Sequence record: DRR723986_4815
Reading direction: 5' to 3' (one strand)
DNA length: 64,000 bases
Shown here: positions 1 through 46,546 of the stretch, in pieces
Layout of the letters: each line of letters begins with the position of its first letter
Position numbering within the stretch: position 1 is the stretch's first letter
The notes under the pieces: generated by a model
Databases searched by the model: none
What the model was told of the DNA's origin: nothing
The model's input: the letters and a program-made list of their open reading frames with translations, nothing else
Program-made: the position numbers and the translations under genes

Positions 1-3000
1 GTGGATCACGCTCGCTTTGCTTACGCTGGTGGTGTGACTCGACTAGAGGGTACCTTCAAAGCGTTCAATACGATTGAGCTGCATCAAGCGGAAGCTCGTA
101 TTGCGAACACGCTGTTTGAGAACAATGCCGATGGTCAAGGTGGTCAAGGGCCTGGCACTCGACTTGGGCGTCTAAGCAACTCTCCAGCGACGATCTTCGT
201 TCGTGGGGCTCAGCCGACGATCATCGACAACGTTTTCCGTGACAACGCGGGCAGTGTGATTGATATCGACGCCAACAGCATGATTGATGATTCGCAGCCC
301 GATCAAGGTCGTCAAACTGGTGCGGCTGATAGCGACCCAGCGTACCTGGCCAACCGTGGCCCGTTGATTCGAAACAATCGTCTCGAGAACAACGAGCTGA
401 ATGGTTTGGAAGTGCGTGGAGATACGCTGACGACCGCGAGCGTTTGGGATGACACAGACATCGCTCACGTAGTGTTTGACGGGATCTTCACTGGGAACAT
501 TGAGCACGAAGGTGGACTTCGGCTGCAGAGCGCTCCCGACGAGTCCTTGGTAGTTAAATTCGACGGTTATGGTTCGAACTTCAACGACAACCTAGGAGCG
601 GGTATTACGGCAAACGGTCAGTTTGCTACGACAACAGGTCGCGTCGGTGGTACTCTGCACGTCTTGGGGCAGCCTGGTTTCCCTGTCATCCTGACCAGCC
701 TCTTCGACGACACTGTCGGTGCGGGGCTTCGTCCTGATGGGCAGCCTCAGGCTGATACTAACAACGATGGTATTGGCTCGGTACCTCAAGCGGCTGACTG
801 GCGTGGGTTATTCCTGGATCAGGATTCGAACGACCGCAACGTTGGCATTGTTCTTGAAACGGAAGATTTCACAGCGGCAGCTCCGGGGCCAAATGGTTCA
901 ACATTGTCCGCTCAAGTGTTGGGCGACCTGGCTAGCACGGTGAATTCAAGCAATGAAAATCGTCGACTTGGCTTCATCGTTGAAGGCGTGTTGAGTCAGA
1001 ACGAAGACGTTGACGTATACAGCTTCTCAGGGGCTGCGGGGTCCGAGATTTGGTTAGACGTTGACAACACGAACAACAACTTGGACCTAGTGCTTGAGCT
1101 GTTGGATGCGAACGGCAATCTGCTTGCTCGCAGTGACAACAGCACCGAAGAGGCGATGGATCCTTCGTTGATCGTTCGCTCCGCTTTGGTAGATCCGAGC
1201 AGTATCAATCCGTTGGCGACTCGAGTCAGCAGTACTCGTTTGTCGTCGGCTGGCGAAGTCAAGGAAGACGGCACGACCAACCCGCTTGATCCAGGGTTGC
1301 GAGTCCGGTTGCCAGGTTCTGCTGGTGCACGAAGTAATTTCTTCTTCCGAATTCGGTCCGCAAGTACGAATAGTGATGCCTCTGGGGCAGGGCTTACTAA
1401 AGGTTCATATCAGGTCCAGCTTCGAATGCAAGAGGAGCAGGAGTGGGCCGGATCGACCATTAACTACGCAGACATTCGGTACGCAACAAATGGTGTCCAT
1501 CTCAAGGGACTTCCGGGCGAATCGCCTCTACTTGGTGAAGTAGCGGAAGATGAAGGGGCGCCGGGTGGAACAACGGAAGCAGACAACGGCGTTGCGATCG
1601 GCCGGGGGCGTACAACATTCCCGCTTGACCCGAATCGCGGAACGACGTTCTTTGGCGAACGCCAGACTGGCAATCGCCCTCAGTACGTTGGGAATATTCT
1701 TGATACCGCAAAGGGTGCAATAAGCATTGCCGGCGAAATTTCGCGTCCCGACGATCTCGATTTCTACATGATCGATATCACGCCAGAAGACTTGGTGGAT
1801 CCCAGCGATTTCTTGAACTCCTATGCTTCTCTCGTGTTTGACCTCGATTACGCAGACGGCTTCAACCGTGCTGATACGTCAATCAATATTTTCCGAGAAG
1901 AATTTTCTGACAGTATCTTCTATCAGGGTGAAAACCAGTACCGCCTGATTTACACCTCGGACAGCAGCAACATCGTTGAGGATCAGCCAAGACCATTGTC
2001 GGTTACCGATGCTGACGACCTAAGTCGTGGTTCCGCCGGGACCGCAGATCCATACATCGGTCCAGTTGCCTTGCCGGTTGGCCGTTATTTGATTGGTGTT
2101 TCTTCGGCCGCATATCAGCCTCGAACCAAGTTGCTGTACCCATCCGACAACATCGAGCCAGTAAACTCGGTTCGTCGGATTGTTGATGAAGCTTGGAGTA
2201 CTGCAAATCGGACTACCGCAGAACCTCCGCAGGTTATCGACTTCTTGCCACGACAGACTATCGGCGCAAGTTTGGAACTGAACTCAGAAAGTTTCGACCT
2301 CGGCGGTTACTCTGCTGCAGATCTGCCGAATATCTATTTGGACTACTCGCACGGTTTAGGTGATTTCGAGGTTGTCGTTGTTGACGGCAACGGCAATGAA
2401 ACAACGGTTGCTGAAACGGTACCAAACACGAATCTGACTCAGCTATCTGCAGGTAACAATAGTGCGAAGATTCCGCTGAGTAGTTTTGCCTACGACTTTG
2501 CGGGGCAGAATGATCTATCGTTAGTTTTCCGCAGTCAGAATCCAGCCACGCGAATCAATAATATCATCATCGGCTTTGCCGAGCGTGGTGAGTTCTATGG
2601 TGTGGCGAATGAAGCTCCGCTATTGACATTTGGTTTCATACCTGGAGCGGCAGCTCCCGAGTTCACTCGGCAGTTTTCTCTGGAGTCGTATGATTTTGCA
2701 GATGCACCTGGGCTGGAGTTTAACTACAACATTCAGCAGAGTAACATGCAGGTGTTCGTCAATGGTTTCCGAGTTGCAACCTCTGAAGCCAACGATCTGC
2801 GACCCGGTGAGTTGCTGCTGGTAACGCAATCACCTCAGGTTGGATTAATCGATCTAACGCCATGGACTGGAGATCCGAACGTCATTGTCGAATTTCGGGC
2901 TCTCGATGATCAAGCTTCAATAACCTTAAGCAACGTTCATGTCGAACTTGCTGATGGGGCGCGGGCTTTCACAGGGGAGCCTAATTCGACGTACGGTGAC

Positions 3001-6000
3001 GTCAATGTGTCACCTGACGTCGTGACAACTGGGCAGTACCAGCTTGAGGTTCGACTCGGTGATACCTACTTCGAGTCACAGCGATTCGGCGCCCCTGTGC
3101 TGACTAGGTCCTTCGACACGAATGATCGTTTGTCGCAACAGACGAACTTGATTGCACCTGCTGGAGCTGACTTGACCGATGGAGACACTTTCGAGTTGTC
3201 TGATGGTGGTACGAGTGTGCGACTGGAATTTACCACCGACGGTTTGGTCGGATTGGGCAATATTCCCGTTCCGTTCTCGCCGACTGACGAAGATTTTGTA
3301 GTCGCCAGGGCGATTCGCGACGCAATCAATAATCCTAACGTGCAGTCGCGTCTGAGTATCCGTGCTGCAAGTTCGGGTGGTGCCGAATCAGGCGCAACTT
3401 CCGATCCACGCATTCAGTTGTTTGGCATCCCAATTGTTCGGACCCTGACGGCAGCGAATCCGGCCGGCGAAGTCCAGGTCGAACTGCAGGAAGGTTTTTC
3501 TGACGAGAACGTTCGACGTCAGCAAGGCCAAGTGCTCATTCAAAATAGCTTTATCCGTGAGTCCCGTGACTATGGAATCTGGAGCGAAGCGGCCGATCGT
3601 CTTCAAGATCCACGGGATGTGGAGGACTTTATTGCTCGGACCATCATTCAGGATCTACCTGAGTTCGTTGGAACGCAGGCCGTTCGCAATTTGGTTGTAC
3701 CCAACGATGACGTTGATGGCGGTTTGCTGCCCGGCCTCGTGATTCAAAACAACGTTCTTGAAGAAGGCGGCTTGGGCGGTATCAACATCCAGGGCGAATT
3801 GCCGATTTGGATGATTTCACCAATCAGTGGGCTGATTCCAGTAACGGACTCGACGGTCAATACAAATCCACACTTTGGTGGTGGTGATCCAGGTACACCT
3901 GGCATTCCAGATGGGTCTGGTTTTGTGCTAGAGTCTGACCGTTCAAGAGTCAATTTCGAATACGAAGATCTGACTTCTGCCGACCAAGGCAATGGCTACG
4001 CAGTAGATGCGATTCCCGTCGGAATTCGCCGAAATGGTGGCCAGTTATATCACCGTATTGCACCGACTTCTTTCGGTACCACGGTACTCGAGTCGCTTCA
4101 TGCAGTCCGAGATTCAGTTCTCGCGAGCCCGTTTGTGACCAATGGTACAACACAAACGATCGAGGCAACGATTGCAGGTAGTCTGCTTGGTCCTGATCCA
4201 AGTGCACCTGATGGAATCTCCGCTGGATACCCAATCTACTACAACCGGCCATCGGTGTATCTTGAGGGCGTCAATTCGATCGCTCTCCGAGGACCACAGC
4301 CATTCCAAACACACACGGTTTCTTTGGGGGCTGCTCCTCAGGCTCACGCTCGCATCGTGAACAATACGGTGATCGGTAAGGATGGTCGTGCGAGCTTCAA
4401 TGGTGAAGATCCGCACGATGAGAGCAACGACACGATTTCGACGGCGGTTCAGACTTGGCAGGGGACGGCCCACAATCCGCTCGCCTATACAGCCGAAGGC
4501 GTTATCGGTGATACAACCGAGGGGCCAATTGAAACCGATGTCGATATGTTCCAGTTCAAACTCGGAACTGGTGAACGTGCGATCATCGACATTGATACGA
4601 CCGACAGTGGCTTAGATTCTGTGCTGCAGATCTTTGATGCTCGCGGAATCGCTCAGACTTTTGTCAACGCTTCTGGTTTAGAAGTAACGCTCAGTGACAA
4701 CGATGCAGCTCCTGGTGAAGCGGTTGGGCTGGATTCGTACGCTGACTTTACTGCGACCGAACCAGGTGTGTACTTCGCTGCTGTGAGTTCGGTTGGTAAT
4801 AGCACTTACGACCCGATTTCACTGGCGAATCGAGCCATCGGTACGACCACTGGGCAGTATTCGATTTCGATTGGCGTACGTCACCTCCAGGACTTTGTAA
4901 TCACCGCCGAGCACGGTAATAACTACAACCAAGGTGACACATTCACGATCTTTGGTGTGCCAGATATCGGTGCGACAGGATCGAGCGGACGAACCTTTGA
5001 ATTTACCTTCACCGGAGGTGTCTCCGATCCAGCGAATATTCCAATCCACATCGCTGCCAACTGGTATCGACCAGATGTTGCTCGGGCGATTGCCAAGGCG
5101 ATTTCTGAGGGCGGCGTAGGTGGCACACCAGCAGTCACAAATTCCCAAGATTTGGATAATGGCGAGTTTGGAACAGCAAGTCCTTTGCCTCCTGTTCACG
5201 CTCGTGCTCTCGGTGGGTTGTCTGGAGTTATCGATGCACCGCTTGACTCGATCTCGGGCGACCGGGCAAACTTCCTAAACGCGTTCTCCGACAACGACTT
5301 CAACTTGGTCAATGAGCTCGGCACCAACGCACTCTCGGATCGCGAAGTGCGACGTCTGCTCAACGGTGACTTCTGGGAAATCAACCAAGGTTTGGAGCTA
5401 TTTGCTCGCCGCAACGATGGGCGATTGTTCACTACCAGTATTAATGGTCGAACCCCGATCACAACCAGCTTGAGTAATCTTGGACTTGGGCACGATCGCG
5501 ATTTGACGACAAGCCTTTCGCGAACCTCGTTGGCTGACGGTACGACCGAGATGCATGTTGTTGTCAACAACGCAGCCTGGATTGAAAGCAACGGGTCGAT
5601 CATCGTTGACCCAGATAGCGGCGTGAACAATAACCTGGACCAGATAATTCCTGAGTCCGGCGTCTTGGCTTCGCGTGGGTCAAGCCCGACGTTGTTGAAT
5701 AATGTATTCTTCAATGTGCAGACTCCAATCGTCAATCAGGAAGCTCGGCGTTTCCCACTCACGGGCGGGCTCGCACCGTTTGGTAGTGAGAATCCGAACG
5801 CTCCGCTCAAGCCTGGCGACGTTGTCATTGGTGGTTCCATCTATCAATACGACGAATCGGCAAATTCACGCTTGCGTCGTGGAACGGGAATCGAGCAGGT
5901 TCCAACCAATGTTCCAAACACGGGCTTCGACTTCAATTTTGATGTTGCTGATGACGTTCGGCTGTTCGTCAACGGTCAAGCTGGTAACTTCCTGCCTGCA

Positions 6001-11547: not shown

Positions 11548-11596
11548 CTGGTGACAAACAGACTCTATCGATCAGAATCAGATTAATGGAAATCCC

Positions 11597-11650
11597 GCGG
11601 GCGGCGTCTATTCGGCAAAATCGGATAGTCGTCGTCCGTTATGTTTATTC
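11597..11650 (+). terminator. Terminator-like RNA hairpin after giant gene 1
   Basis: gcgggcggcgtctattcgg-caaaa-tcggatagtcgtcgtccgt forms a 19-position stem with one mismatch and several G-U pairs (favoured on + strand), followed by tatgtttatt. Confidence 0.5.
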
Positions 11651-11944
11651 GGATCGACTCCGAAAGTAGCGGCTGGGGCTTGTGGTCCAGACGCGATTTT
11701 TCGTCGGTTGAAAAGGTTCGAGTAAGCACGCGGCTCGGTCTCTAATTGAGGCCCACGAGCTGCAACAAACAAACCACTCCGCCGCTGGCTGATGCTAGCG
11801 GCACCTATATCCTCAGGAAGATTCCATCCTCCTAGCGCATCGTCGTTCAGCACAAAAAGTTGGTCAATTGATCAACGTTGAGGTCGGCGGTTTAGCACGA
11901 TACCAAGCAAACCTTGTTCATAAGCTCCTTGGAAGGTAAGTCGA

Positions 11945-23900: not shown

Positions 23901-26900
23901 TCAGTGACTTAGCTGGGAATCCTCTGTTTGCGAATCGAGTTAACAGTCTAACTCAGTTTACGATCGTTATGCCGGATGTATCCGTCGACTATGGTGACGC
24001 TTCGTTTGACGCAGAAGGGCGTTCCTATCCGACTGTTGCTACTGACGCGACAGGACAGCGAACGCTTGACCCAACTCGAAATGCTCTGCTGCCGGTCGAT
24101 GTTCCGCTACTAGCCTTGGGAGCATTCTCTGATGGTGAAGTAGACGGTCAGCCAAGCGTCGATGCACAGGGCGATGATTCGGCAACAACAACCCTCGCGA
24201 GCACGATCGCGGGAGCAACAGTCGTCAACACCGGAGCGATCCTGCTTGACGTGACCGCAGCACCAACTGACGGTGAAACGTTCACGATTACAGATCCACA
24301 ACTGCGGACAGCTACTTTTGAATTCGACAATGACGGATCCATCGCATTGGGCAACCTGCAGGTTTCCCTACCAGTCGGTGCAACGGCAGAGGATGCAGCC
24401 TCAGCAGTTCGCGACGCGGTCAACGCTGCTGTTGTTGCAGGAGCTGTCGGAGGCCTGTGGGCGTCGACCAACGGAAGTCAAGTAAGCCTGGGTGGTTCGA
24501 GTGACCACGCTCTTGTTACCGGTGCGAGCCTTACAAGGTTGGGCACTGGGACCTTCGATCTGACGATTCCACCGGCAGTTGATGACGGTGATACGATAAC
24601 CGTTTCGGATGGTCGTGGACGGACGGTTACGTTTGAGATCGACGACAATCCAGCCGGAGGCGATGCTTCAGTTGCGGCTGGCAACGTGCCAATCACCCTG
24701 GACCTCGTATCGTCAACTCCGGAGAATATCGCTGCTGCAGCCGCGGAGGCCATCAACGCTGCGGTATCAGCCCGACAGTTGGTCATCGCACCAGTAACCG
24801 TCGATGGCCCAACACTACGTGTTAGCGGAGATGATGAAGATGGCGTTCGGTTCGATGGTTTGTTTAATCCGAATCTGGAACCTGTGCCGGTTGTCGTTAC
24901 TTCCACCGGTGCTGGCGTCCTGGATGCTTGGTTTGACTGGAATGCAGATGGCGACTTTGCCGATCCGGGTGAGCGCGTCGTAACAGACCTGCCGGTGCAA
25001 GCTGGTGAGAATACAGTTTTGGTTTCTACGCCGTCCATCGCGGCAGTTGGAGCCACGTTCGCTAGATTCCGTATTAGTACCACCGGCAACTTACCGTTGG
25101 GTGGTATTGGGATTGGCGGTGAGGTTGAAGATCACTTGATTGAGATCGTCGATGGCGAACCTCCGGTTGCCGTCGATGACAATTACTCGGTTGATGAAGA
25201 CGCGAGTCTGACCGTAGCTGCGCCAGGTGTCTTGGCCAACGATACGGATTCAGACAGTCCGGCGCTGACGGTTCGCGACCAGGATCCTCTGACTCCAGCG
25301 ATTGACGCAGTTCGTGCACCTGAGCATGGCGATTTGGTGCTGAACGCCGATGGTAGCTTCACGTACACGCCGGATCCAGATTTCTTCGGCGAAGATACAT
25401 TCATCTATTACGCCGCGGACGAACGCTTACAAAGCGCCCTTCCTGCGACGGTAACCATCACCGTAAACCCGATCAATGACGCGCCGACGGCGGTTGATGA
25501 CGAAATCACGATACTCGAAGACGAAGTGATTTTGCGCCCCGGCAGCGATTTCACCGGCAATGATTTCAAGGGAGTCGAAGGCACGCCGAGCCAGTTCAAT
25601 GAGCTCGGACAAGATCTAGAGGTGGTTGCGGTTTCGATTATCCATCCACCGGTAGGAGTTTACGGTGGAACGGTTAGTGTTATCGATGACCAGATCACGT
25701 ACGTGCCACCAGCGCACTACAACTCCAATATTGACGGGCCAGCATTGATCCAGGTTACCATCCGTGACAGTGGTGTTGCGGGAGCGGATGAAATGCCGAT
25801 TGAAAGCATCAGCACGCTGACGATCAACATTACCGCCGTCAACGATGCACCTGAGTTCGTCATGCCTGAAACGACTACTGTTGTTGAAGACGCTGGTGCT
25901 GTTGTTGTGGATAATTTCCTGACAGACTTGCGACCTGGGCCGGCCATTGCCACTGATGAATCAGATGGCCCGGCAGTCGCCTTCGAAGATCAGCAGGTGT
26001 CTTATACGGTTACTGCGCTCGACGAAACGTTGTTCACGACGCTTCCAGCCATCGCAGGATCGCTGGATCCGAATCCTGGCCAGCTAACCTATGAGTTGGC
26101 TCCGAATGTTAGTTCTGCTGATCCATTCCCAGAGATCTTGGTCACTGTGACGGCCGTAGATACTGGGCTCGACGGCGGGCCTAACAATGACGTGAACACG
26201 AGTGAGACGCGGACGTTCACGATTATTCCAACGCCGGTAAATGACGCCCCTGAGTTCGATATTCTCGAGCGGGTGGCTTCCTTGGAAGACGAGGGTGTCA
26301 TAACGGTCACAGATTTCATGACGGGGATTCGCCCTGGTCCAGCATCGGCGACCGACGAAGCGGACCAAGTGCTCTCGGTTGTAATCGATGCAGATCCAAC
26401 AGCATTTACAGCGGCAGGGTTCCCGACGATTGATCTGGAAACAGGTGTTCTCACGTACGAAACGGCACCTCATGTCAATCAGTTCACCGGTCAAAACTTC
26501 GTCGTCGAAGTAACGTTGATCGACGATGGCGGTACCGCTCTTGGTGGCGTTGACCGAACATCGAAGTCGTTCACAATCGATGTCACTGAGCTGAATGATG
26601 CTCCTGAGTACGATATGCCAAGTGTCACAAGTGCCTTCCAGGAAGATCCGACTGCGGACCCTGATGCACCGACTATTGTGCCGAACTTTGCCAGTAACAT
26701 CATGCCCGGTCCAGCGGCAGCAATAGACGAAGGTCCAGCTCGCGAAGATCAGCAAGTCAGTTTTGTTGTGCGAGCAATCGACGCAGCAACTGAAGCTCTG
26801 TTCGATCCTGCTTGGCTACCTGCAATCGACGCATCCGGTACGCTCACGTATCGTTTGAACCCTGATGTCAACGAGATGACGCCATTCCCAACCATCTTGG

Positions 26901-29900
26901 TTGAAGTCATCGCGTCTGACACCGGATTGAATGACGATCCATCCGTAGGTGCCAACCGCAATATCAATACGGCAGAGACAAGAACGTTCACAATCTTGCC
27001 AGATCCGATCAATGATGCACCTGAGTTCACCATTCCTGCGACGCTTGACGCTCGCGAAGATCAAGGGGCAACGACTACTGTTGATTTTGTGACTGAAGCC
27101 CGTCCCGGCCCTGTTTCTGCTCTGGACGAGTTGGCCTCGCAAACGCTGACCATTACGGTCGAAGCACTTGATCCGTCAGCATTTACAATGACGGGACAAC
27201 CTGCGATCACGCTCGACCAGGCAACTGGTTTGGGAACGTTGACATTCGAGCTGGCCCCTGACGTCAATAGTCTGACGGGACACGATCTGGGCGTTCGCGT
27301 AACGCTTCAGGACGATGGTGGGACAGTCAATCCTGGCGACGTTGATACAACGATAAAGACATTTACGCTCGTCGTTGACGATGTGAATGATGCCCCGAGC
27401 TTCGATATTGATGTGCCGGAAGTCACTGTTGATGAAGATCAAGAAGACGTGGTGATGGCTAGCCCGACGGTCATCCCAGGCTTTGCCTCAAATATCGTTG
27501 CCGGTCCTTCTACAGCCGTTGATGAAACGACCATACCAGCGACTCAGCAAGTGCTTACGTTTGAGACCCTTTCGGTTTCTGATCCTTCTCTGTTTGCTGT
27601 AGATCCAATGATTACGCCAGATGGCGACCTGGTCTTTACAACGGCGGACAATCAGAACGGAACGGCAGTTGTCGTGGTCCGATTGATGGACAACGGTGAT
27701 GATTCGTCGACTGGTGAAGGTGACGAAAACGTTTCGACCGAAAGTACGTTTACGATCACGTTGCGGCCAATCAACGATGCTCCTGTGTTCTCAATACCAG
27801 ACACGGCGAACAGCATTGAGGACCAGGGATTGGTAACGATTCCTAGCTTCGCAACCGGCATGTTGCCTGGACCAGCCTCAGCAACCGACGAAGCTGGGCA
27901 GCAGTTCACGGTTACTGTCACCGCGGTCGACCCAACAGCCTTCTCGGTTCAACCAACGATCGGTGCCGATGGAACGCTTTCGTTCCAAACAGCACAGGAC
28001 ATCAACTCAAACTCTGGCAAGAGTCTTGAAGTCACTGTCTTCCTGACTGACGATGGAATTGCCGGTCCGCTTCCGCACCGCAACACGTCCGACGTGCAGA
28101 CGTTCACGATTACCACGACTCCAGTGAATGACGAACCAGTCTTCACACTGACACAGTCAACGGTTACGGTGATCGAGGACGTGGAAGAGTTCGAAGGAAC
28201 ACTTAACACGGTGATTCCAGCGTTTGCGACCGACATAGCACCTGGACCTGCAAATGCGACTGATGAAGCGGGCCAAATGGTCAACTTCGAAGTGGTCTCT
28301 GTGACTGCACCGGAGTTGTTCGAAGAAGCTCCAGCAATCGATGCAACGACGGGTGACCTATCCTTCAAGACCGCTCAGCACAAGAACGGCAAATCGGTCG
28401 TCGTTGTGCGTCTAGTCGATGATGGGCCCAACTCGCCGGCACCAAATGACAACACGTCGCGTCTACAGACCTTCACGATTTCGGTAACACCGATCAACGA
28501 TGAACCAGAGTTCTCGTTGCCAAACCAAGTTATCGTTGATGAAGATGGAGGATTGGTTAGTCGTGGGCAGTTCGCAACTGACGTAAGACGTGGTCCGGTA
28601 GGGGCTGATGACGAAAACAGTCAGTTGATTCAGTTCAGCGTTGTGGCTTTGGATCCGACCTCGTTTACAGTTCAGCCGTCAATCGGTGTAGATGGAACAT
28701 TGACATTCCAAACAGCCGAACATGTCAATTCACTCAACGCTGATCTGCGTGTTGTAGCCACTTTGCTGGACAATGGTGCATCTAGTCCTGTGCCGAACGA
28801 CAATACGTCGCCTTCGCAGACGTTTACGATCCAGGTCAATCCAGTTAATGACGCTCCTACGACTGACGACTACGAGATTAGTGGTACAGAAGACGCTCCT
28901 CTGACAATTCAAGCCGCCGATGTGTTGGTTGGCGATGTTGCTGGTCCGACTCCGGACGAGTTGAATCAGAATCTTCGCATTACTCAGGTAGCTCGTACGA
29001 GTCAGAACGGTGGTTCGGTGGTTCCTGTATTTGGTAATCCTGCCGATCCAACTCAGATCACCTCGATCGACTACCTACCGCCTGCGAACTTGGCCGGAAC
29101 TGACTTCATTCTCTACGTCGTTACCGACGATGGTTCCCCAGAGCGAAGCGGAACTGGAACTATAACGATCAGCATCGACGGAGTGAATGATCCACCGCAG
29201 TTCACGCGTGGCGCCGATCAGGCTGCTCCAGAAGATTCTGGTGAAGTTTCGATCGAAGATTGGGCAAGCAACATTTTGGCTGGTCCTCCTTCTGCCGCTG
29301 ATGAGCTTGCGGAGCAAACGGTAACGTTCAACGTTGCTGCAACTGACACAAGTCTCTTTGCAGTTCAGCCAGCGATTAGCTCGGATGGAACGCTCACCTT
29401 CACCCCTGCCAAGGATGCGAACGGTTCCACAACTGTGACCGTTCAGGCTCAGGATGATGGCGCGAGTGCTTTTCCGAACAACAATTTGTCGCCGGTTCAA
29501 ACGTTTACGATTCGCATCAATCCAGTGAACGACGCTCCAGTGTTCACCGCGGGTGGCGACATCGCCGTTGATGAAGATAGTCCAACCTTTGCTGGCAATT
29601 GGGCGACTGACATCGCTCCTGCTGCTGGACTGCTTGACGATCCGCAGACTGCAACTGACGAAGCCACTCAAGGTGTCGACTTTATCATCGCAGTTGATCG
29701 TCCAGAGCTATTCGCAGTACAACCAAGCATCAGCAGTACTGGTGAACTGACGTTTACGCCGGAGGCCGACGCGTTCGGTGAAGCGGTCGTGACGGCAACC
29801 TTGGTGGATCGTGGGCCAAACAACGCAGGTGATGAAAATACTTCGACACCAGCGACCTTCACGGTGACGATCAATCCAATCAACGACCGCCCAGTAGCAG

Positions 29901-31303
29901 TCGAGGATTCGTTCAGCACCACTGAAGACAGTAGTCTCCTTGTGCTTGCGACCGGGTTGCTGCGAAATGACACCGACGTTGACTTGCCACTGGATTCGCT
30001 CTCGGTTGTTGCTGGCGATGTCGTTACAGACGCTGGTGTCACGGTGACGCTAAACGCTAACGGCTCGTTCACTTACGATGCGACCAGTCAAGAAGAATTC
30101 CAGCAGTTGCAAGCGGGCCAAAGTGTCTTTGACCGCTTCACTTACACCATTGAAGATACTGCTGGCGAAGTCAGCCTGCCCGGCACGGTGACCATTCGGG
30201 TAGACGGACTCGACGACGCTCCGGTAGCCAATGATGATACGTTCTCCATTGGCGTTGGTGGCGGCCGAGATCTGCCAGTACTCGCCAACGATACAGACGT
30301 TGATTCGACCATCGATCCGCAAACGATCGAGATCACTGCTAGCCCTGCGTTTGGTAGTGTTGAAGTCAATGACTTGGGCGTCGTTCGTTACACGCCAGAT
30401 GCTGGGTTCCGTGGTGCGGATACATTCCGCTACACCGTCCGAGACAGCTCGGGGAATGTCTCCAACGAAGCTATTGTGACGGTAAATGTCAACAGTGCTC
30501 CGGTTGCTGTTGATGATTCAGCGATCACAGTCAAGAACGAAGCGATCGAGATCGACGTCATCGGCAATGATAGTGATATCGATGGTACGATTGATCCGGA
30601 TTCGATCCAGATTGAACAACAGCCTGTCAACGGAGTTGTTGAGGTTCTGGGTGACGGAACGGTTCGATTCACACCGAGTACTGATTTCTCCGGTCTTGCT
30701 ACTTTCGCCTATAGCGTTCGCGACAATGTTGGAACTCCGTCAAATGTGGCTAGTGTCAACGTCCAAGTGCTGAACAGTAGATGGCAGAATCCTTCCGAGT
30801 TCCTCGACGTGAACGCGGACGGTGCAGTCTCGCCAATTGATGCGTTGATCCTGATCAACTATCTCAATTCCGGCGCGGAAACTCAACTTCCGTTGACTGA
30901 CATCGAGCCAGCTCCATTCTTGGATCCGAACGGTGACGAAGTAGTGACACCATCGGATGTGCTGCTGATCATCAACTTCTTGAATGCAAATTCAGCCGGT
31001 GGTGAGGGCGAAGGTTCAGTGGACTACGCAATGATGGTGACACCGCAGCAAGTAATTGAAACGGTGGGTCCACTGATTGTGAAGGAGATCGAAGCTGAGC
31101 TTGAGGCAGCCCGCATGGCTATCCTAGCCGAGGGCGAAGCGGACGAGCTAGAAAGTGCGATGCCTGTCGACTTCAGCGATCTTGATGACGATGAAGGCAT
31201 GTTGGACGCACTGACCTGTTCGCATGACGAATCGGAGAAGACTGACTTTGATGCAGCCTTGGATGATTTCTACAGCGGCATCGGACCAAAGCGACCGAAG
31301 TAA
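11945..31303 (+). CDS. Giant 6452-aa extracellular protein with planctomycete N-terminal motif, matrixin/M10-like metalloprotease, PPC-like, beta-helix, propeller-like insert, GEVED, about 16 cadherin/Ig-like repeats and dockerin-like C-terminus
   Basis: ATG preceded by ggaaggt. RRVILETLERRELLA at the N-terminus; HEIGHGIGLGH plus TKLMEP Met-turn; VFVDK..DGSAAAPFSTIPAAL beta-helix cap; GGEVEDH; repeated (V/I)NDAP.F; DVNADGAVSPIDALILINYLN. Confidence 0.95.
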   Translation: MASHFSSRNIFSSSTSQTTEQKRSHLRRVILETLERRELLAYDLGSAVYSPGTPSDYIDGIEGRFVRGSGNSNAFFDLNSRWTNPTGGPSPNQGDPATITWSIVPDGTQAPDLNSALGASNLVQFMDAIYGAGDGGAIQDRPWFNIFERAYGTWSDLTGLNFVYEPMDDGAAYSNTSRGVSGVRGDVRIGGRGMDGNGGVLAFNYTPANGGDVGFDGDMVIDTAGNDILNAADGPNGENRYLFNILMHEIGHGIGLGHVRPVNQTKLMEPFASSAFLGAQLDDILGGHELYGDRLENNDTQGTATDLGDLLNGRTGVDALSANRANDEDWFEFAVSSRGEITIAVTPTGEQYRVGNTTDGSDGTESDTDSLRYLDLNFELYDAFGTQLATVNASGLGEAETTALELPEGGSYFLKVAGTGAAHIGPQMYDLDFLLNGFTTGFASGQPRLLSIAPNSGDIFSFNETNALDAAPTELVFRFDGAESIDPATLSGGLRVTRAGGDGTFGDGNEEIIVPGFVGLGDNDRIAILRFATTLKDDLYRVEVFGEDGVEPGVVAVKSPAGIPIEPRAIDSTRDDLTRDSIDFNLELGALVQAVVPQPVERADDGSLVPQRDTIRVYFNDDDLHDSFVTTGDAGAPTVVDPQFYQLILTNDTVQPGDDQVFMPTSITYDPETDIAELTFSAPIDQLAGAGTYRLRVGGQDEVVSVANPGNVEILDPADDPSGFASGAQDLGAINSAFSAIINESIETTDGDVLPLDYPGSPLEPGQRDIQDEAHVAFTGSDADPGIRTIQYNFALDRSYGVDAQGRPTNTSITSDQIARVREALEFYSRSLGVDFVETQDSGLTIVVGDTFPFGVSGSGDNGFFDRQSNIVVMDAGRDWDNSFAQRVDSSDTTDYFLPAVIREIGRSLGLGYTFDLPEGTFLGSEDELDNRNKGLRFGQEWNFPGDADIVHGRFLHRPDNRDVDTYRFQIEAGQTAQVVAETIAERLPDSSNLDTHLTLFRRTANGFEVVAQNNDKVSSDSLIELELTEGEYFLSVTGRGNEDFNIEVDNTGSGATSQGRYQLRLDITPVAESIVDTSGTPIDGDGDGIAGGNFNFWFRTAAPIDEAAFGEAKTVFVDKDNSGAEDGSAAAPFSTIPAALAVVAPGDIVRVIGSEGLDGEISTTDDNPAYEIGRGGVGNGVLEDGLTLDVPQGVTVMIDGGAIFKLGASRISTGSLNASTNNSFSALQVLGVPGNDVLFTSYNDEALGVDTNPLSTTARSGDWGGLDFRNDVDLAEGRGAHELNGVFLNYVSHADIRYGGGQVTVTIPNRVVSPISMSEARPTLLNNKINLGADAAMSADPNSFEETRFTHPRFQLAESFKPDYVRVGPDIRGNTLTDNSTNGLFVRTSTAPGQPLTTLEVAGRFDDTDIVHVLGENLIVNGTPGGAVLEEVAPDVSLTQRASVTGGTLTVGSSVEYKVTFVDAFGGVSVPSASTPALTLTDTAVDLQQLPRATGDFVGRRLWRSTDGGLFTLVAELDGDTLSFTDTGQDLQAVLNDPNTAALQRARLNGRLQIDPGIIVKSSGSRIEAGIGAQIIAEGSSANPVVFTSRFDDSYGAAGTFDTNNDSAGTNPGAGDWAGIVARHLSSLSLDNVLVTYAGGPSSISGSTAAFNAVEIHQADARIANSTFQMNQSGIITDASRDGRGPNEASVVFVTGSQPTIINNVFRDNSVAGTAAISINANALDSVSRSDMGRQTGAADRLPSGVGNKGPLVSGNLLSDNSINGLRVRGQTLTTESVWDDTDIVHVLQSEIVIPDLHTYGGLRLQSRSDESLVVKLEGASAGFTALGRPLDIEDRIGGTLQIVGQPGFPVFLTSLSDDSVGAGFDPTGVALVDTNNDGPSAGAPGNWRSIRLEPYANDRNVNILVENETDQIQETGTNDSTIFAEDIGALASTLSGGDENLRLGVTVDGTIAAPQDLDVYTFLGTAGVPVWIDIDRTSGGLDTVVELLDPNGNILAQSDNSLRETEGTANRFVSDNGAQILPEQVLPLTQQNQFYPDLDGNGVVDDEVHSNDDLYSTNPLDAGMRLVLPGAVGETNQYFIRVRSSNVGPGQDSSRLQDDLLERDGLSQGSYRLQVRMQEADEFAGATVRYADIRFATNGIEARGMPTSSQLLGTLSTAASTTLDLGNIANSDRGSVTVAGSIDTPNATNTFDFEIRRDSVKPGNGGHIATTFDIDYADGFGRPNTRLWVFNRDSGELVLIGTDSNIADDQGAPLNGVDVDDLSRGSAGTRDAFIGTVELPEGNYRAIVTNDSRIIQEFDQFQVANATNPNLRLEPVNSIQRISVDRFENPSTETALPAVQTLFPNNGVSNANAVPWTLADVSAYTVSSNSLVQLANAHTGAREALLSTANRTITDAALRPDGTFVGFALPNGNVTDANSGDFLNLDVEGTPNSNVVPTITTTFGNHGIQTFTTQQSAFGGNPAFAVQQRDQVPDANNQPLGDGIQFNGLTYFHTSDNGLRMFGVGSRGNGQAGFRTPTFDANGAVNGISNTVVLNGTNVVYRLDPNSGQAINRDGFANRAAPAVANGNHAGTQIVEFGRFLSGDDADQFTAGTVTGLAQVGGNLFAVSDLGEFFATSIGGLGTGAMTGQVTRVFGDNIMRGVPELTTIIDPETNQPVAFTGLTSGPRNLENERFANILFGTTSDGSIYAFNTAGELQPVFPGFSYKTRTDGGDGIGNGIVGLDFSPLDVNLWHQTNRRSGDAGHGRPATFDNSQLNDRPGGQSLYFGFDPQRVEGDWTGAYNVAAFDNTVDLPGGARGAIVSQALDLSGYSANDLPMLYFNYFLATTDTNEDITTQQRMQDAFRVYGAGEDGQWRLLATNNTPSDAGANRLNGRDEFDFNGGNVDPFGNRIRTQELFDNTGNWRQARTSLSAFAGQDNVRIRFEFSTGATFNTGDPVRGGVEVVTVSADRTSDGDYFKITPQNGVSDVGRKAIEFDHGLVLNLPSAASLVDGVSTISIDGTDVVFSLTDNTGSMIQYAEGDSPSQIAEKVEARLPAIIAGVQVAINPERPGVIGVLGLAANDFVVPNYSVSELSGDVISSLPGAADHVIETPAGPTLQFLEGFGAPVQITVNDVVYTFRQNGNAANDIQYDPAATSFDIAQLLFDRLQADLALIQFASENVQLVPETDIIKLYDAPGGTYDDSLSSIIYSVDSVELAQDLSSNGVRDAVRQRLADTYTNPFSVGLGGNPLDAWPLLGAQGHGIRVHQFTISDTSPGGLDTSGLGVTGSRVGDAFGVEKGALSDRDEQTQSNAIEGVYIDDIIVGLAERGEMVLSSAGGQTQVDNQHYEDFPGFNEVETGPYQLTVRTSAEYGIGGGTNFSLSPLVGARAFTSNDRLGQELGIQVRQDAAGQIVDGVTFSLSDGGVPVTFEFDVTSGLDDLASGVEAGNIPVAINASDNTVQIANAILSAINSPASQLVLDLTASLEMRDTPNGRLPVVALHGEAAADESGAFTFAQETFLEPVIWGVETGFGQDTADSERERAQGQLLLVANTITDSSQWGIEITTGTRSQGFGDVGNRPYPGAPINLPTLNTDSLAPGVVVINNIIASNDTGGINIAGDPAADAPVQIARVLNNTIYGDGSGTGIQISGDASPTIMNNILASNANGVTGPAGSTAIVIANTFQDNGTNSSGVSLGSFNQSLGSAEPLFVNTTNRRFYLAEGSPAIDASLEALQERPELAQVRNALSLPVSPMLAPDLDVTGQRRVDDPTANSPAGLGGNVFKDRGAVDRSDFIGLEAVILQPQDNDALQVDQDRTTTYIQLQEGTLEFFSILLLDRNGTGPDPSTVLSRAVTLTENGRLLQAGNDYIFGYNANSRTIQLTPVAGIWRSDSVYEITLANADSFTLDVSDGGIAQDGETFTITRGATTNVFELDSDGNVADGSIAVPFTIDSTEYEIALQLMSAINNSGMAVRSYLQGDGAVTVSGATDVVSAGATVVTRPVGGISDLAGNPLFANRVNSLTQFTIVMPDVSVDYGDASFDAEGRSYPTVATDATGQRTLDPTRNALLPVDVPLLALGAFSDGEVDGQPSVDAQGDDSATTTLASTIAGATVVNTGAILLDVTAAPTDGETFTITDPQLRTATFEFDNDGSIALGNLQVSLPVGATAEDAASAVRDAVNAAVVAGAVGGLWASTNGSQVSLGGSSDHALVTGASLTRLGTGTFDLTIPPAVDDGDTITVSDGRGRTVTFEIDDNPAGGDASVAAGNVPITLDLVSSTPENIAAAAAEAINAAVSARQLVIAPVTVDGPTLRVSGDDEDGVRFDGLFNPNLEPVPVVVTSTGAGVLDAWFDWNADGDFADPGERVVTDLPVQAGENTVLVSTPSIAAVGATFARFRISTTGNLPLGGIGIGGEVEDHLIEIVDGEPPVAVDDNYSVDEDASLTVAAPGVLANDTDSDSPALTVRDQDPLTPAIDAVRAPEHGDLVLNADGSFTYTPDPDFFGEDTFIYYAADERLQSALPATVTITVNPINDAPTAVDDEITILEDEVILRPGSDFTGNDFKGVEGTPSQFNELGQDLEVVAVSIIHPPVGVYGGTVSVIDDQITYVPPAHYNSNIDGPALIQVTIRDSGVAGADEMPIESISTLTINITAVNDAPEFVMPETTTVVEDAGAVVVDNFLTDLRPGPAIATDESDGPAVAFEDQQVSYTVTALDETLFTTLPAIAGSLDPNPGQLTYELAPNVSSADPFPEILVTVTAVDTGLDGGPNNDVNTSETRTFTIIPTPVNDAPEFDILERVASLEDEGVITVTDFMTGIRPGPASATDEADQVLSVVIDADPTAFTAAGFPTIDLETGVLTYETAPHVNQFTGQNFVVEVTLIDDGGTALGGVDRTSKSFTIDVTELNDAPEYDMPSVTSAFQEDPTADPDAPTIVPNFASNIMPGPAAAIDEGPAREDQQVSFVVRAIDAATEALFDPAWLPAIDASGTLTYRLNPDVNEMTPFPTILVEVIASDTGLNDDPSVGANRNINTAETRTFTILPDPINDAPEFTIPATLDAREDQGATTTVDFVTEARPGPVSALDELASQTLTITVEALDPSAFTMTGQPAITLDQATGLGTLTFELAPDVNSLTGHDLGVRVTLQDDGGTVNPGDVDTTIKTFTLVVDDVNDAPSFDIDVPEVTVDEDQEDVVMASPTVIPGFASNIVAGPSTAVDETTIPATQQVLTFETLSVSDPSLFAVDPMITPDGDLVFTTADNQNGTAVVVVRLMDNGDDSSTGEGDENVSTESTFTITLRPINDAPVFSIPDTANSIEDQGLVTIPSFATGMLPGPASATDEAGQQFTVTVTAVDPTAFSVQPTIGADGTLSFQTAQDINSNSGKSLEVTVFLTDDGIAGPLPHRNTSDVQTFTITTTPVNDEPVFTLTQSTVTVIEDVEEFEGTLNTVIPAFATDIAPGPANATDEAGQMVNFEVVSVTAPELFEEAPAIDATTGDLSFKTAQHKNGKSVVVVRLVDDGPNSPAPNDNTSRLQTFTISVTPINDEPEFSLPNQVIVDEDGGLVSRGQFATDVRRGPVGADDENSQLIQFSVVALDPTSFTVQPSIGVDGTLTFQTAEHVNSLNADLRVVATLLDNGASSPVPNDNTSPSQTFTIQVNPVNDAPTTDDYEISGTEDAPLTIQAADVLVGDVAGPTPDELNQNLRITQVARTSQNGGSVVPVFGNPADPTQITSIDYLPPANLAGTDFILYVVTDDGSPERSGTGTITISIDGVNDPPQFTRGADQAAPEDSGEVSIEDWASNILAGPPSAADELAEQTVTFNVAATDTSLFAVQPAISSDGTLTFTPAKDANGSTTVTVQAQDDGASAFPNNNLSPVQTFTIRINPVNDAPVFTAGGDIAVDEDSPTFAGNWATDIAPAAGLLDDPQTATDEATQGVDFIIAVDRPELFAVQPSISSTGELTFTPEADAFGEAVVTATLVDRGPNNAGDENTSTPATFTVTINPINDRPVAVEDSFSTTEDSSLLVLATGLLRNDTDVDLPLDSLSVVAGDVVTDAGVTVTLNANGSFTYDATSQEEFQQLQAGQSVFDRFTYTIEDTAGEVSLPGTVTIRVDGLDDAPVANDDTFSIGVGGGRDLPVLANDTDVDSTIDPQTIEITASPAFGSVEVNDLGVVRYTPDAGFRGADTFRYTVRDSSGNVSNEAIVTVNVNSAPVAVDDSAITVKNEAIEIDVIGNDSDIDGTIDPDSIQIEQQPVNGVVEVLGDGTVRFTPSTDFSGLATFAYSVRDNVGTPSNVASVNVQVLNSRWQNPSEFLDVNADGAVSPIDALILINYLNSGAETQLPLTDIEPAPFLDPNGDEVVTPSDVLLIINFLNANSAGGEGEGSVDYAMMVTPQQVIETVGPLIVKEIEAELEAARMAILAEGEADELESAMPVDFSDLDDDEGMLDALTCSHDESEKTDFDAALDDFYSGIGPKRPK

Positions 31304-41079: not shown

Positions 41080-41083
41080 TGGC

Positions 41084-45814: not shown

Positions 45815-46546
45815 ATGACAATTCTGGAAGCCTGCGACGTCGTCAAAACGTACTCCAGCGGCGAAAGCCAGGTGCAGGCCTTGCGTGGAGTCTCGGTGTC
45901 ATTCGAGGTCGGGGAGTTTGCGGCCATTATGGGGCCCAGCGGTTCTGGCAAAAGTACTCTGCTTACCATACTGGGCGGTGTCGAGCGTCCGACTTCTGGC
46001 AAAGTTCTCCTTGAAGGGGCGGACATGTCGGAAATGGAGGAGGACCAGCGGACCATTTTGCGTCGACGAAGGCTGGGGTTCATCTTCCAGTCGTTCAATC
46101 TGCTTCCGAATCTTACCGCTTTAGAAAACGTTGCTTTGCCCATGGAGTTGGATGGCCGGCGGAGCAAAGACGCACGCCAGCAGGCGCTCGAATCGCTCGA
46201 GTTGGTAGAAATGGAACATCGTTGCGACCATCGGCCAAGTGCGCTTTCTGGGGGAGAACAACAGAGAGTTGCCATCGCACGAGCCCTTGCCATCAAGCCC
46301 GCTCTGTTGCTTGCCGACGAACCGACCGGGAATTTGGACTCCCGACAGGCTGGCCGCGTTATCGAGCTGCTCCGTGGGCTCGTTGAAGAGCACCAACAGT
46401 CTATCGTCATGGTGACTCACGATCCGGCCGTTGCCAAAGCAAGCCACCGTCTGGTTACGATTCGTGACGGACAGATCGAAGATGATGGTGACGCCGATAC
46501 GGTGCTTGGTCGCAACTCGCTCGCATTGACCCGGGACGAGCGATGA
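45815..46546 (+). CDS. ABC transporter ATP-binding protein (LolD/FtsE-type)
   Basis: [24 protein letters not shown] and DEPTGNLD motifs. ATG 45815 lies 7 nt after aaaggt. Confidence 0.95.
   Translation: MTILEACDVVKTYSSGESQVQALRGVSVSFEVGEFAAIMGPSGSGKSTLLTILGGVERPTSGKVLLEGADMSEMEEDQRTILRRRRLGFIFQSFNLLPNLTALENVALPMELDGRRSKDARQQALESLELVEMEHRCDHRPSALSGGEQQRVAIARALAIKPALLLADEPTGNLDSRQAGRVIELLRGLVEEHQQSIVMVTHDPAVAKASHRLVTIRDGQIEDDGDADTVLGRNSLALTRDER

Follow-up and report, generated by a model that had tools for sequence, protein, structure and literature searches.

A conserved tandem pair of giant Pirellulaceae proteins with domains apparently carried in the turns of host domains

The locus and the collinearity of the two proteins

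Two giant open reading frames (ORFs) lie in tandem at the start of a 64,000-nucleotide (nt) stretch of sequence record DRR723986_4815, which we refer to as the window. We asked how the two encoded proteins are related and where they differ. P1 and P2 denote the proteins of ORF1 and ORF2, a01 to a16 denote conserved anchors, and L followed by a number denotes a related locus.

1..11547 (+): ORF1, the C-terminal 3848 amino acids (aa) of a giant protein (P1) whose gene starts upstream of the window
11945..31303 (+): ORF2, a complete giant protein (P2) of 6452 aa

The ORF1 frame contains no stop codon up to the window start. In the closest relative found, locus L001 of genome G001 (94% identity over the query block), the frame of the ORF1 ortholog includes a start of its own and stays open for about 5677 aa, and the ORF2 ortholog has 6478 aa. 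ORF1 therefore lacks about 1830 codons, cut off by the window edge. The two genes are separated by 397 nt, within which a promoter and terminator scan returned one match each against chance expectations of 0.6 and 0.7.

Relatives were identified by scanning one genome per prokaryotic species, which yielded 88 confirmed stretches, 80 of which were kept as loci. All kept loci carry the labels Pirellulaceae, Pirellula, Planctomycetota or similar. Fifteen anchor hidden Markov models (HMMs) were mapped on all long open frames, and interval statistics refer to the 64 ORFs with at least six anchors. A quick maximum-likelihood tree of the conserved block around NVFKD (80 rows) places ORF2 in a clade of 12 rows with a Shimodaira-Hasegawa-like approximate likelihood ratio test (SH-aLRT) support of 100, and ORF1 in a clade of 17 rows (support 98) inside a larger group of upstream genes. 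A third clade of 15 rows (support 92) is drawn open, with several of its rows on long branches.

A sequence-only reading of this DNA had proposed that the two proteins share one scaffold, with the same anchor motifs in the same order, and differ by domains placed in loops. Pairwise alignment upholds the common order, as BLASTP aligned P1 and P2 in five collinear blocks:

P1 1-742 with P2 1631-2339: 40% identity over 773 columns, E 8.7e-139
P1 1008-1266 with P2 3338-3602: E 5e-17
P1 1978-2598 with P2 3680-4238: E 1.6e-60
P1 2912-3321 with P2 4298-4688: E 1.3e-50
P1 3101-3756 with P2 5707-6357: E 2e-26

Fifteen of the 16 motifs that had been listed match exactly once per protein and are collinear. 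The remaining motif, DLAGN...TQFTI.MP, matches neither protein as it was written because the spacer was one residue short, although both proteins contain the block (HMM anchor a15; P1 2819, P2 3979). The dockerin pair reported for both proteins was recovered as Dockerin_1 at each C-terminus (E 1.3e-13 in P1 and 1.4e-18 in P2). The same reading had counted at least five sites where one protein has a short loop and the other 190-630 inserted residues, and this agrees with what we measured: six intervals between anchors differ, five by 214-636 aa and one by 111 aa.

EPVNS to DLxGYSA (a08>a09): P1 46 vs P2 491 aa
DLxGYSA to IIxGxAERGE (a09>a10): P1 87 vs P2 494 aa
IIxG to NDRL (a10>a11): P1 178 vs P2 67 aa
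NDRL to NVFKD (a11>a13): P1 1011 vs P2 375 aa
Ig anchor to DLAGN (a14>a15): P1 669 vs P2 144 aa
DLAGN to GEVED (a15>a16): P1 158 vs P2 372 aa

Pfam covers the proteins in part, and assigns to both of them several PPC domains, a right-handed beta-helix, GEVED, repeats of the Cadherin_4, Cadherin_5 and Big_9 families, and Dockerin_1.

Inserts within the domains of the trunk

Two segments were modelled. Model 1 covers P1 aa 545-1135 (alignment of 112 rows from the loci; mean predicted local distance difference test (pLDDT) 77.0, predicted template-modelling score (pTM) 0.47) and model 2 covers ORF2 aa 3330-4420 (107 rows; mean pLDDT 74.6, pTM 0.42). The first three of the variable intervals fall in a region that we divide as follows:

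1663..2121 (+): P1 PPC/collagen-binding-like host, all strands except the last (aa 555-707; model 1, VIA-align)
2227..2973 (+): P1 insert in the PPC hairpin, two CBM-like jelly rolls (aa 743-860 and 870-991; model 1)
3031..3057 (+): P1 last PPC-like strand, GQYQLEVR (aa 1011-1019; model residues 467-475)
18452..18823 (+): P2 PPC-like host, all strands except the last (aa about 2170-2293), by homology to P1 555-707 in the E 9e-139 block
18932..20344 (+): P2 insert A (aa 2330-2800), no known family, weak beta-propeller lead
20333..20824 (+): P2 jelly roll 1, all strands except the last (aa 2797-2960), strands from alignment to P1 model 1
20837..21814 (+): P2 insert B inside jelly roll 1 (aa 2965-3290), no family, middle part variable within the P2 clade
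21827..21988 (+): P2 jelly roll 1 last strand (aa 3295-3310), then the PPC-like last strand GPYQLTVR (aa 3341-3348)

The three best fold matches of the PPC-like host in model 1 (VIA-align) were the collagen-binding domain of ColG (5iku_A, Z 11.9, model range 11..475), a B. anthracis collagenase (5sv5_A, Z 11.1, range 9..474, 105 of 105 chain residues) and ColH (3jqw_A, Z 10.7, range 11..476), each with 105 residues aligned at a root-mean-square deviation (rmsd) of 2.4-2.5. The two jelly rolls matched separately, at model residues 199..316 and 326..447, to CBM22/29/35/36 and similar domains with Z 7-8. Because the range of the PPC fold reaches to about residue 475, past the two separate jelly rolls, the last PPC strand follows both of them. 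Ortholog L030 has no insert here, and a turn of four residues links the two strands (GRYRLVISGG-NG-DYQVEIR); in L038 a 9-residue loop does so, and the anchors of the inserted region are absent from the whole ortholog group to which these two loci belong. The hairpin before the last strand thus stands as a site that holds about 305 aa in ORF1 vs about 1045 aa in ORF2. Foldseek comparison of model 1 with the PDB gave low-scoring multi-domain matches to tandem CBM-like arrays (TMq 0.09-0.16) that were uninformative on topology.

These results bear on a simpler explanation, namely that both proteins are linear mosaics, beads on a string, in which whole domains are gained or lost in linkers and the apparent nesting is an artefact of alignment or modelling. 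PPC alignments of 105 residues that end only after two independently matched jelly rolls are difficult to reconcile with such an arrangement, as are orthologs in which the flanks are joined by a tight turn.

The corresponding branch of P2 consists of a linker, insert A and jelly roll 1. It lacks the second P1 jelly roll (aa 870-991) and carries insert B, about 330 aa that part the penultimate from the last strand (the IIVGLAERGE block, a10) of jelly roll 1. In model 1 this block is the last strand of the CBM-like fold, whose range ends at 316, and in 21 orthologs with the insert it stands more than 300 aa after the rest of the jelly roll. By homology to the ORF1 model, the ORF2 branch is a predicted three-layer nest of PPC-like host, jelly roll 1 and insert B. 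Insert A has no Pfam or NCBIfam family. Its single PDB sequence match (cardosin, E 0.0011) is at chance level. Atlas feature matches to propeller clusters (NHL/DUF4394/DUF6923-type) reach 0.81-0.84 and miss the 0.9 level, so that a beta-propeller is a lead only. Ten loci of the P2 clade keep insert A at 46-71% identity; in the third clade its halves are parted by a further stretch of about 345 aa that includes two copies of the module described below (e.g. L075).

Beta-helix 2 is uninterrupted in P2 and interrupted twice in P1:

22448..23275 (+): P2 uninterrupted beta-helix 2 (aa 3502-3701) and cap motif (aa 3762-3777); Pfam Beta_helix E 4e-7, model 2
3481..3807 (+): P1 beta-helix 2, N-terminal rungs (aa 1161-1269); helix HMM nodes 44-139, independent E-value (i-E) 3.7e-10
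3808..4329 (+): P1 helix insert 1 between rungs (aa 1270-1443, about 175 aa), no family
4387..5625 (+): P1 helix insert 2 between rungs (aa 1463-1875), with a PPC domain at aa about 1513-1597 and one module at aa 1645-1717
5626..6267 (+): P1 beta-helix 2, C-terminal rungs and cap with NVFKDRGAVDRSDFIG (aa 1876-2089)

The P2 helix matched pectate and alginate lyases, tailspikes, AlgG and NosD by fold (VIA-align, Z 9-12.5). An HMM of the P2-type helix matched P1 in four collinear pieces, the N-terminal rungs listed above and three others:

nodes 140-158: P1 1444-1462, i-E 0.0065
nodes 150-186: P1 1876-1912, i-E 9e-4
nodes 218-325: P1 1982-2089, i-E 1.1e-36

The same pattern occurs in L002. The break points correspond to model-2 residues 276/277 and 295/296, which are turns between strands in a helix of pLDDT 78-95. 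Thus two adjacent turns are filled in ORF1, with about 175 and about 410 aa, and empty in ORF2. That the helix pieces remain collinear on either side of the inserts, in P1 as in L002, also argues against a linear mosaic. The tail of insert 2, like insert 1, showed no family.

In some orthologs helix insert 2 contains, directly before the PPC domain, a subtilase cassette of about 440 aa composed of a prodomain (Fervidolysin N-prodomain, E 2.5e-7) and Peptidase_S8 (PF00082, E 1.5e-49). The cassette is present in 14 ORFs, all from P1's own subclade, and in 12 of the 63 ORFs spanning a07-a13. ORF1 and L001 are without it by a clean indel with the downstream PPC domain retained (window 4387-4540, aa about 1463-1513; compare L002 7274-8599). 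In the tree both are nested among cassette-bearing relatives, and they likely lost the cassette. Another recent change distinguishes L071 from L070. With flanks 90% identical, the two show a length difference of about 137-156 aa, at a point where a PPC domain is matched in L071.

The cap motif NVFKDRGAVDRSDFIG (window 23138-23320, ORF2 aa about 3727-3787) is the most conserved motif of the family and is invariant between the paralogs. The stretch has pLDDT below 50 in model 2 (398-458). We take it to resemble the D..G..R......DxGAxE motif that closes many beta-helix domains.

Beyond the helix lie an Ig-like domain and a unit running from DYGD to GEVED:

23342..23968 (+): P2 Ig-like host (aa 3800-3881 and 3989-4008) with one nested module (aa 3882-3984)
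6631..8409 (+): P1 array of six modules and a partial seventh (aa 2211-2242, first HMM) in the Ig loop before the last strand (aa 2211-2803)
8476..8550 (+): P1 Ig-host closing segment DLAGN...TQFTILMP (aa 2826-2850), by homology with P2
8566..9075 (+): P1 uninterrupted DYGD-GEVED unit (aa 2856-3025)
23987..25156 (+): P2 DYGD arm (aa 4015-4077), two modules (aa 4108-4280) and GEVED sandwich (aa 4296-4404)

The Ig-like host of model 2 matched the S-layer protein SbsC (2ra1_A, Z 8.9, 94 residues aligned, model range 471..682) and 4uj6_A (Z 8.6, range 471..681; VIA-align), and the module, at model residues 553..655, lies inside the SbsC-matched range. Insert-free ortholog L075 has only 46 aa between the anchors, its YxVxL strand leads straight into ISDLAGN, and Big_5 (PF13205) is recovered across both flanks at 24.7 bits against a cut-off of 23.6 (E 4e-5); L074 scored 14.6 bits, and the interrupted Ig pieces of P1 and P2 gave no Big_5 match. 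An Ig alignment that spans the module, and orthologs that read through the Ig domain and regain Big_5, are again not expected of beads on a string.

The length of a14>a15 tracks the number of modules, with 41-48 aa for none, 141-149 for one, 246-354 for two, 463-514 for three and 665-815 for five to seven. The DLAGN-GEVED interval steps in the same manner (118-167 aa with no module, 262-288 with one, 372-392 with two), and across the family there are 0-7 copies in the Ig loop and 0-2 in the DYGD-GEVED unit. GEVED itself was identified as PF20009 in both proteins (E 2.9e-14 and 2e-11). In three loci of the third clade (L074, L078, L065) the DxGD...GEVED unit is present 3-5 times in tandem. It recurs about every 165 aa, with about 14 residues from one GEVED to the next DxGD; the window proteins have one unit each.

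The module, which is the usual plug-in, was found with an iterative HMM seeded with one repeat, and a match of about 70 aa represents a structural unit of about 100 aa. ORF1 has eight copies and ORF2 four, and pairwise identity among copies is only about 20-30%. With a profile of 78 copies, a threshold of E<=0.001 yielded 3414 cluster representatives; 1547 of them remained at E<=1e-10 and 445 at E<=1e-30. Proteins of 1000-8000 aa with 5-26 matched stretches make up most of the top 150. Among ten clusters looked up, the five with an organism label are Pirellulaceae or Planctomycetota, and the names encountered were hypothetical, PPC domain-containing, tandem-95 repeat, DVUA0089 family and GEVED domain-containing. 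A separate profile search over proteins of 231-2000 aa gave 11 matches.

None of the 78 copies matched a Pfam family at threshold. The commonest sub-threshold match was Flagellin_IN (PF07196; 8 of 78 copies at E<=1, best E 0.0036, none at the gathering score), which left 70 copies without one, and the conserved helix of the module (...IA..I..AIN..G+.V.A) resembles the flagellin hook IN motif. By fold, the module matched a domain of three phage tail proteins, the sheaths of cyanophage A-1(L) (8kee_A, Z 11.1, rmsd 1.8) and PhiTE (9cb9_A, Z 10.4) and a protein of P-SCSP1u (8i4m_A, Z 9.0), and it resembles the outer domain of tail sheaths. The best PDB sequence matches of the profile (flagellin, FlgI, PhiTE sheath and FliD) had E 0.011-0.04, below significance, and Atlas placed the module with unnamed clusters at 0.80-0.84. 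A module-like stretch in the N-terminus of the L085 ORF1 ortholog (aa 423-489) gave a weak match to phage tail sheath domain II (Phage_sheath_domII, PF17481; E 0.012). Flagellin_IN and phage sheath domain II are surface-exposed variable domains. We conclude that the module is a widespread alpha/beta domain without a name, most similar among known domains to the exposed and variable ones of flagellar and phage-tail proteins.

Orthologs, the ends of the proteins and the alternatives

Some intervals were near-constant among the related ORFs (a13>a14, 100-125 aa, n=63; a06>a07, 35-55 aa, n=61) and seven fell into discrete length classes, given here in aa with the number of ORFs in brackets:

a02>a03: 160-179 (49); 409-490 (9)
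a08>a09: 44-46 (14); 262-289 (4); 482-516 (11); 745-772 (7); 854 (1); 1034 (1)
a09>a10: 79-113 (22); 337-407 (10); 494-590 (12)
a10>a11: 64-88 (25); 178-208 (14)
a11>a13: 375-386 (12); 576-696 (8); 825-886 (4); 1011-1020 (2); 1114 (1); 1471-1497 (12)
a14>a15: 38-48 (5); 141-149 (12); 246-354 (4); 463-514 (3); 665-815 (35)
a15>a16: 118-167 (41); 262-288 (6); 372-392 (12)

The sites that vary between P1 and P2 are the same sites that vary in the 64 related ORFs, and with discrete classes at all six they are therefore family-wide hot spots. Length states mostly track the clades of the tree. At a02>a03 the third clade has an extra stretch of about 280 aa with no family, and Pfam searches of four other inserts (L055 a08>a09, L052 a02>a03, L029 a07>a10 and L043 a11>a13) returned no families.

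The tandem arrangement was evaluable in 39 upstream-type loci with at least 2.5 kb of downstream room. In 37 of these a second giant ORF starts within 600 nt, and most of the downstream ORFs carry a zincin motif and the first anchors. The tandem pair of giant genes is old and conserved, and its two genes are probably co-expressed.

The orthologs also speak to whether the giant ORFs, or the differences between them, could be artefacts of assembly or annotation (chimeric contigs, repeat collapse, pseudogenes). Metagenome bins supply most of the related loci, and genes rich in repeats collapse readily. Against this, both frames are open over 11.5 and 19.4 kb, and independent assemblies show this architecture and these length classes again, among them the complete genomes of two isolates (L018, L044). 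The module copies are so diverged, at the identities given above, that they are not collapse-prone, and the state without the S8 peptidase is common to P1 and L001, which come from different assemblies. We consider an artefact scarcely credible.

The ends of the proteins comprise the following features:

12002..12820 (+): P2 leader motif (aa 27-41, Planc_extracel-like, below cut-off) and Matrixin M10 domain (aa 145-292)
9088..11238 (+): P1 cadherin-like/Big_9 stalk and Dockerin_1 pair (aa 3030-3746)
25157..30985 (+): P2 cadherin-like/Big_9 stalk of at least 14 repeats of 110-139 aa, and Dockerin_1 pair (aa 6288-6347)

A Planc_extracel-like (PF07595) motif occurs at the same place in all three N-termini scored, at 15.1-17.1 bits and below the 25.5 cut-off; these were ORF2 (12023-12067, aa 27-41), an ORF2 ortholog, and the ORF1 type as represented by L085 (aa 30-45). 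Both gene types open with the same basic leader followed by LLExLExRxLL(A/T), and a classical signal peptide was not obvious by eye in the N-terminus of either. In L085 (1-1788, minus strand; ORF1 ortholog aa about 100-230) the first Ig-like domain is, by eye, about 110 aa longer than its counterpart at ORF2 aa about 450-560, and the extra residues may be one more nested insert.

At the C-terminus, the duplicated calcium-binding segment of Dockerin_1 (PF00404) scored above the 22.9-bit cut-off in both proteins. No cell-surface anchor motif was found in P1 or P2, which have the dockerin pair instead. Acidic tails of about 100 aa with no family extend beyond the dockerin pairs (11239-11544 and 30986-31300). 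Searches of P1 and P2 against Pfam and NCBIfam gave no known adhesive family, and the CBM-like character of the jelly rolls is by fold only, at the Z-scores stated above. An antisense ORF of 307 aa inside the ORF1 stalk (9820-10743, minus strand) is most likely a chance frame. Of the 18 other ORFs of at least 300 aa in the window, the 17 that were scanned, all but this antisense frame, are housekeeping, generic transport or without family, with no cohesin or evident partner among them. Genes for a MacB-type permease and a HlyD-type adaptor, and a second FtsX/MacB_PCD gene, lie a few kb downstream (39838-42340, minus strand; 46543-49074, plus strand) and represent generic exporters.

Catalytic domains at these ends and in the helix of some orthologs raise the alternative that the nesting is real and the pair is chiefly a protease or substrate-capture complex held by dockerins, similar to the "planctosome", and not an adhesive fibre. 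PPC domains typically accompany secreted peptidases. The ORF2 Matrixin domain (PF00413) is well supported (E 2.6e-12, 47.3 bits against a cut-off of 24) and retains its HExxHxxGxxH zinc site, as HEIGHGIGLGH at aa 248 (12686-12718). In addition, the 14 upstream-type orthologs with the cassette carry a complete prodomain and subtilase followed by PPC, Dockerin_1 ends both window proteins, and a cohesin/dockerin peptidase complex has been proposed for freshwater Planctomycetes, according to excerpts of PMC6461901. However, ORF1 itself lost its subtilase, and the second M10-like site of ORF2 (14651-14683, aa 903-913) reads REIGRSLGLGY, so its zinc-site histidines are lost. The genome of the close relative has no cohesin above cut-off, and the bulk of the mass of both proteins, in stalk repeats, modules and CBM-like domains, is non-catalytic. 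A primarily proteolytic complex is thus a possibility that we take seriously and nonetheless think unlikely. Several downstream-type orthologs (e.g. L002, L007, L012, L017, L045, L048) have two intact HExGHxxGxxH motifs.

We return to the reading that inserts are nested within host domains, against which a number of observations weigh. The sequence-only reading had placed the inserts in loops throughout. This holds for the PPC-like domain, the Ig-like domain, the jelly roll and two turns of the beta-helix, and does not hold at two of the six sites: the 445-aa difference at a08>a09 falls in a 36-residue stretch of model 1 (167-202) with pLDDT below 50, and the 111-aa difference at a10>a11 is the second jelly roll of ORF1, in series. 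Both are serial additions in linkers, inside the nested branch. Segment-wise structure prediction finds the PPC and Ig hosts complete only after their inserts. The GEVED sandwich, however, forms a complete domain downstream of its insert (model 2 967..1075), where unrelated beta-sandwiches match it at Z 9.2-9.6, and pLDDT in the DYGD arm stays under 50. The sole argument that this arm belongs to the unit is the periodicity of about 165 aa in the third clade. Nested insertion therefore does not extend to all six variable sites, with two of them serial and the DYGD-GEVED arm modelled at low confidence.

Further points concern the evidence at the nested sites. The PPC-like host has no PF04151 match, with no families at E<=1 in any of five pieces (P1 host, P1 last-strand piece and three insert-free orthologs), while the other PPC domains of both proteins do match this family. 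The insert B nest of ORF2 is drawn by homology to ORF1's model, and the two middle helix pieces are individually weak against a single sequence, at the i-E values listed. Strand membership was taken indirectly, from first and last aligned residues (VIA-align), DSSP, pLDDT and insert-free orthologs. Both models are middling in pLDDT and pTM, so inter-domain geometry, and hence a branched shape, is not fixed by them. No cohesin was found in P1 or P2, and the best PF00963 score in genome G001 was 22.6 bits, below the 24.1 cut-off.

The proposal that the proteins diversified by loop insertion rather than by end-to-end addition is not supported in that form. From GEVED to dockerin the stalk measures 670 aa in ORF1 and 1896 aa in ORF2, a difference of 1226 aa made up of ordinary tandem repeats. 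The N-terminal M10/PPC region of ORF2 is missing from the ORF1 type, in that only query residues 446-500 matched the ORF1 ortholog in G001, and is an end-to-end difference between the types. The two serial sites and the tandem module arrays add to this. The serial sites, the stalk and the module arrays, together with the GEVED sandwich, are what favours a linear mosaic, and excerpts of PMC10952558 stress domain shuffling for GEVED-bearing adhesins. Given the PPC, Ig and helix results above, we regard a purely linear arrangement as improbable.

The proposed building plan and known systems

We favour, with a probability of roughly 0.7, the interpretation that the locus encodes a conserved tandem pair of proteins with one trunk in which additional domains are mostly carried in the turns of host domains, and we infer from this the existence of sockets and side branches. 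The pair would be an old and conserved set of giant extracellular proteins of Pirellulaceae. Their shared linear trunk would consist of beta-helix 1, PPC 1, PPC-like 2, beta-helix 2, a Big_5/SbsC-like Ig domain, DYGD-GEVED, a cadherin-like stalk and a dockerin-like pair. Most of the size difference in the trunk would be due to whole, independently folding domains placed in host turns, with the remaining strand or strands of the host following the insert. The permissive turns would act as structural sockets for a small repertoire, namely the ~100-aa module, PPC domains, jelly rolls, a possible propeller and, in orthologs, the prodomain-subtilase cassette. The product may be a trunk with side branches that displays binding and, in some members, proteolytic domains outside the cell. 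Insert states would mostly be old and clade-specific, with an occasional recent gain or loss.

An extracellular location is predicted for the pair from a set of domains (Dockerin_1, GEVED, Cadherin_4/5, Big_9 and PPC) typical of fibrillar extracellular proteins. An adhesin function, a branched shape and co-assembly of the two proteins, each of which the sequence-only reading had put forward, are conceivable from the domain content and the conserved tandem arrangement. We also considered a bolder, "socket-and-plug" version for Pirellulaceae, where a handful of fixed permissive turns on a rigid trunk would be loaded with the insertion-tolerant module and other cassettes (PPC, CBM-like, propeller, subtilase), which would be multiplied or exchanged there, and the two proteins would form one heteromeric surface organelle. 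This version is speculative and we consider it rather doubtful. If true, the contents of the sockets would tune the binding and proteolytic repertoire of the organelle, and many giant proteins not yet studied would follow a common rule of construction, with nests of at least three layers.

The locus suggests a concrete building plan for a widespread family, with a conserved trunk, defined sockets, a plug-in repertoire and both insert-free and insert-rich variants, and draws attention to a domain family without a name, about 100 aa long and with 3414 or more cluster representatives. The plan predicts a shape (side branches), cargo-tolerant loops that would be useful for display engineering, and a function (binding with proteolysis). 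Two cultured strains whose genomes are complete (L018, L044) carry orthologous loci.

Planctomycetota are known for their giant genes. Excerpts of a 2025 review (PMC12673574) describe giant planctomycete products as "apparently" involved in surface structure or extracellular activities and leave their role open. Excerpts of a 2024 survey of huge proteins (PMC11573180) give Big_9, Cadherin_4/5 and Dockerin_1 as typical in planctomycetes and leave the architecture unresolved.

Several known systems share features with P1 and P2. CshA-type fibrillar adhesins resemble them in GEVED, the long stalk of Ig/cadherin-like repeats, the predicted extracellular location and the mosaic content; they differ in that no CshA NR2 domain was found in P1 or P2, which have a dockerin-like pair in place of a cell-wall anchor. 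For GEVED-bearing fibrillar adhesins, the excerpted text of Barringer et al. 2023 (PMC10952558) has domains being shuffled along the chain and strands receiving only short insertions, whereas the core variation in P1 and P2 consists of domains nested in loops of other domains. The "planctosome" proposed for Nemodlikiaceae, as far as excerpts of Andrei et al. 2019 (PMC6461901) describe it, involves proteins of about 2200 aa, cohesins and M12B/M14 peptidases in freshwater Planctomycetes. It is similar in its dockerin-bearing extracellular proteins with peptidase domains and, unlike the present pair, belongs to another family; G001 has no cohesin above cut-off.

The PPC/collagen-binding domains of clostridial collagenases (ColG 5iku, ColH 3jqw) and B. 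anthracis 5sv5 have the same fold as the host domain. Unlike these, the host is split by 305-1045 aa before its last strand and has no Pfam PPC match even when insert-free. SPATE (serine protease) autotransporters such as Hbp have a right-handed beta-helix passenger decorated with sub-domains that emerge from turns between rungs. The likeness is in extra domains emerging between rungs of a right-handed beta-helix; however, no autotransporter beta-barrel was found here, the helix is one of several hosts, and ortholog inserts include PPC and a whole subtilase cassette.

Known parallels to the nests are phage T4 tail sheath protein gp18 and the pneumococcal pilus adhesin RrgA, in which a domain sits in the loop of a domain that is itself inserted in a third, with the outer domains exposed. 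Here too there are nests, and the fold of the module matches the corresponding phage sheath region (8kee_A and 9cb9_A), although at the sequence level no relation is significant (best PDB profile E 0.011-0.027). Unlike gp18 and RrgA, the pair has a trunk of more than 5000 aa and several nest sites with tandem arrays of up to seven modules, which differ between paralogs and clades. Among the papers listed in full-text searches, with supplements outside their coverage, none describes nested insertion in giant planctomycete proteins or fibrillar adhesins. Domain insertion itself is well known as a principle; what appear to be undescribed are its scale, fixed sockets common to a large family, nesting up to three layers deep, a dedicated module without a name and the conservation of the two genes as a pair.

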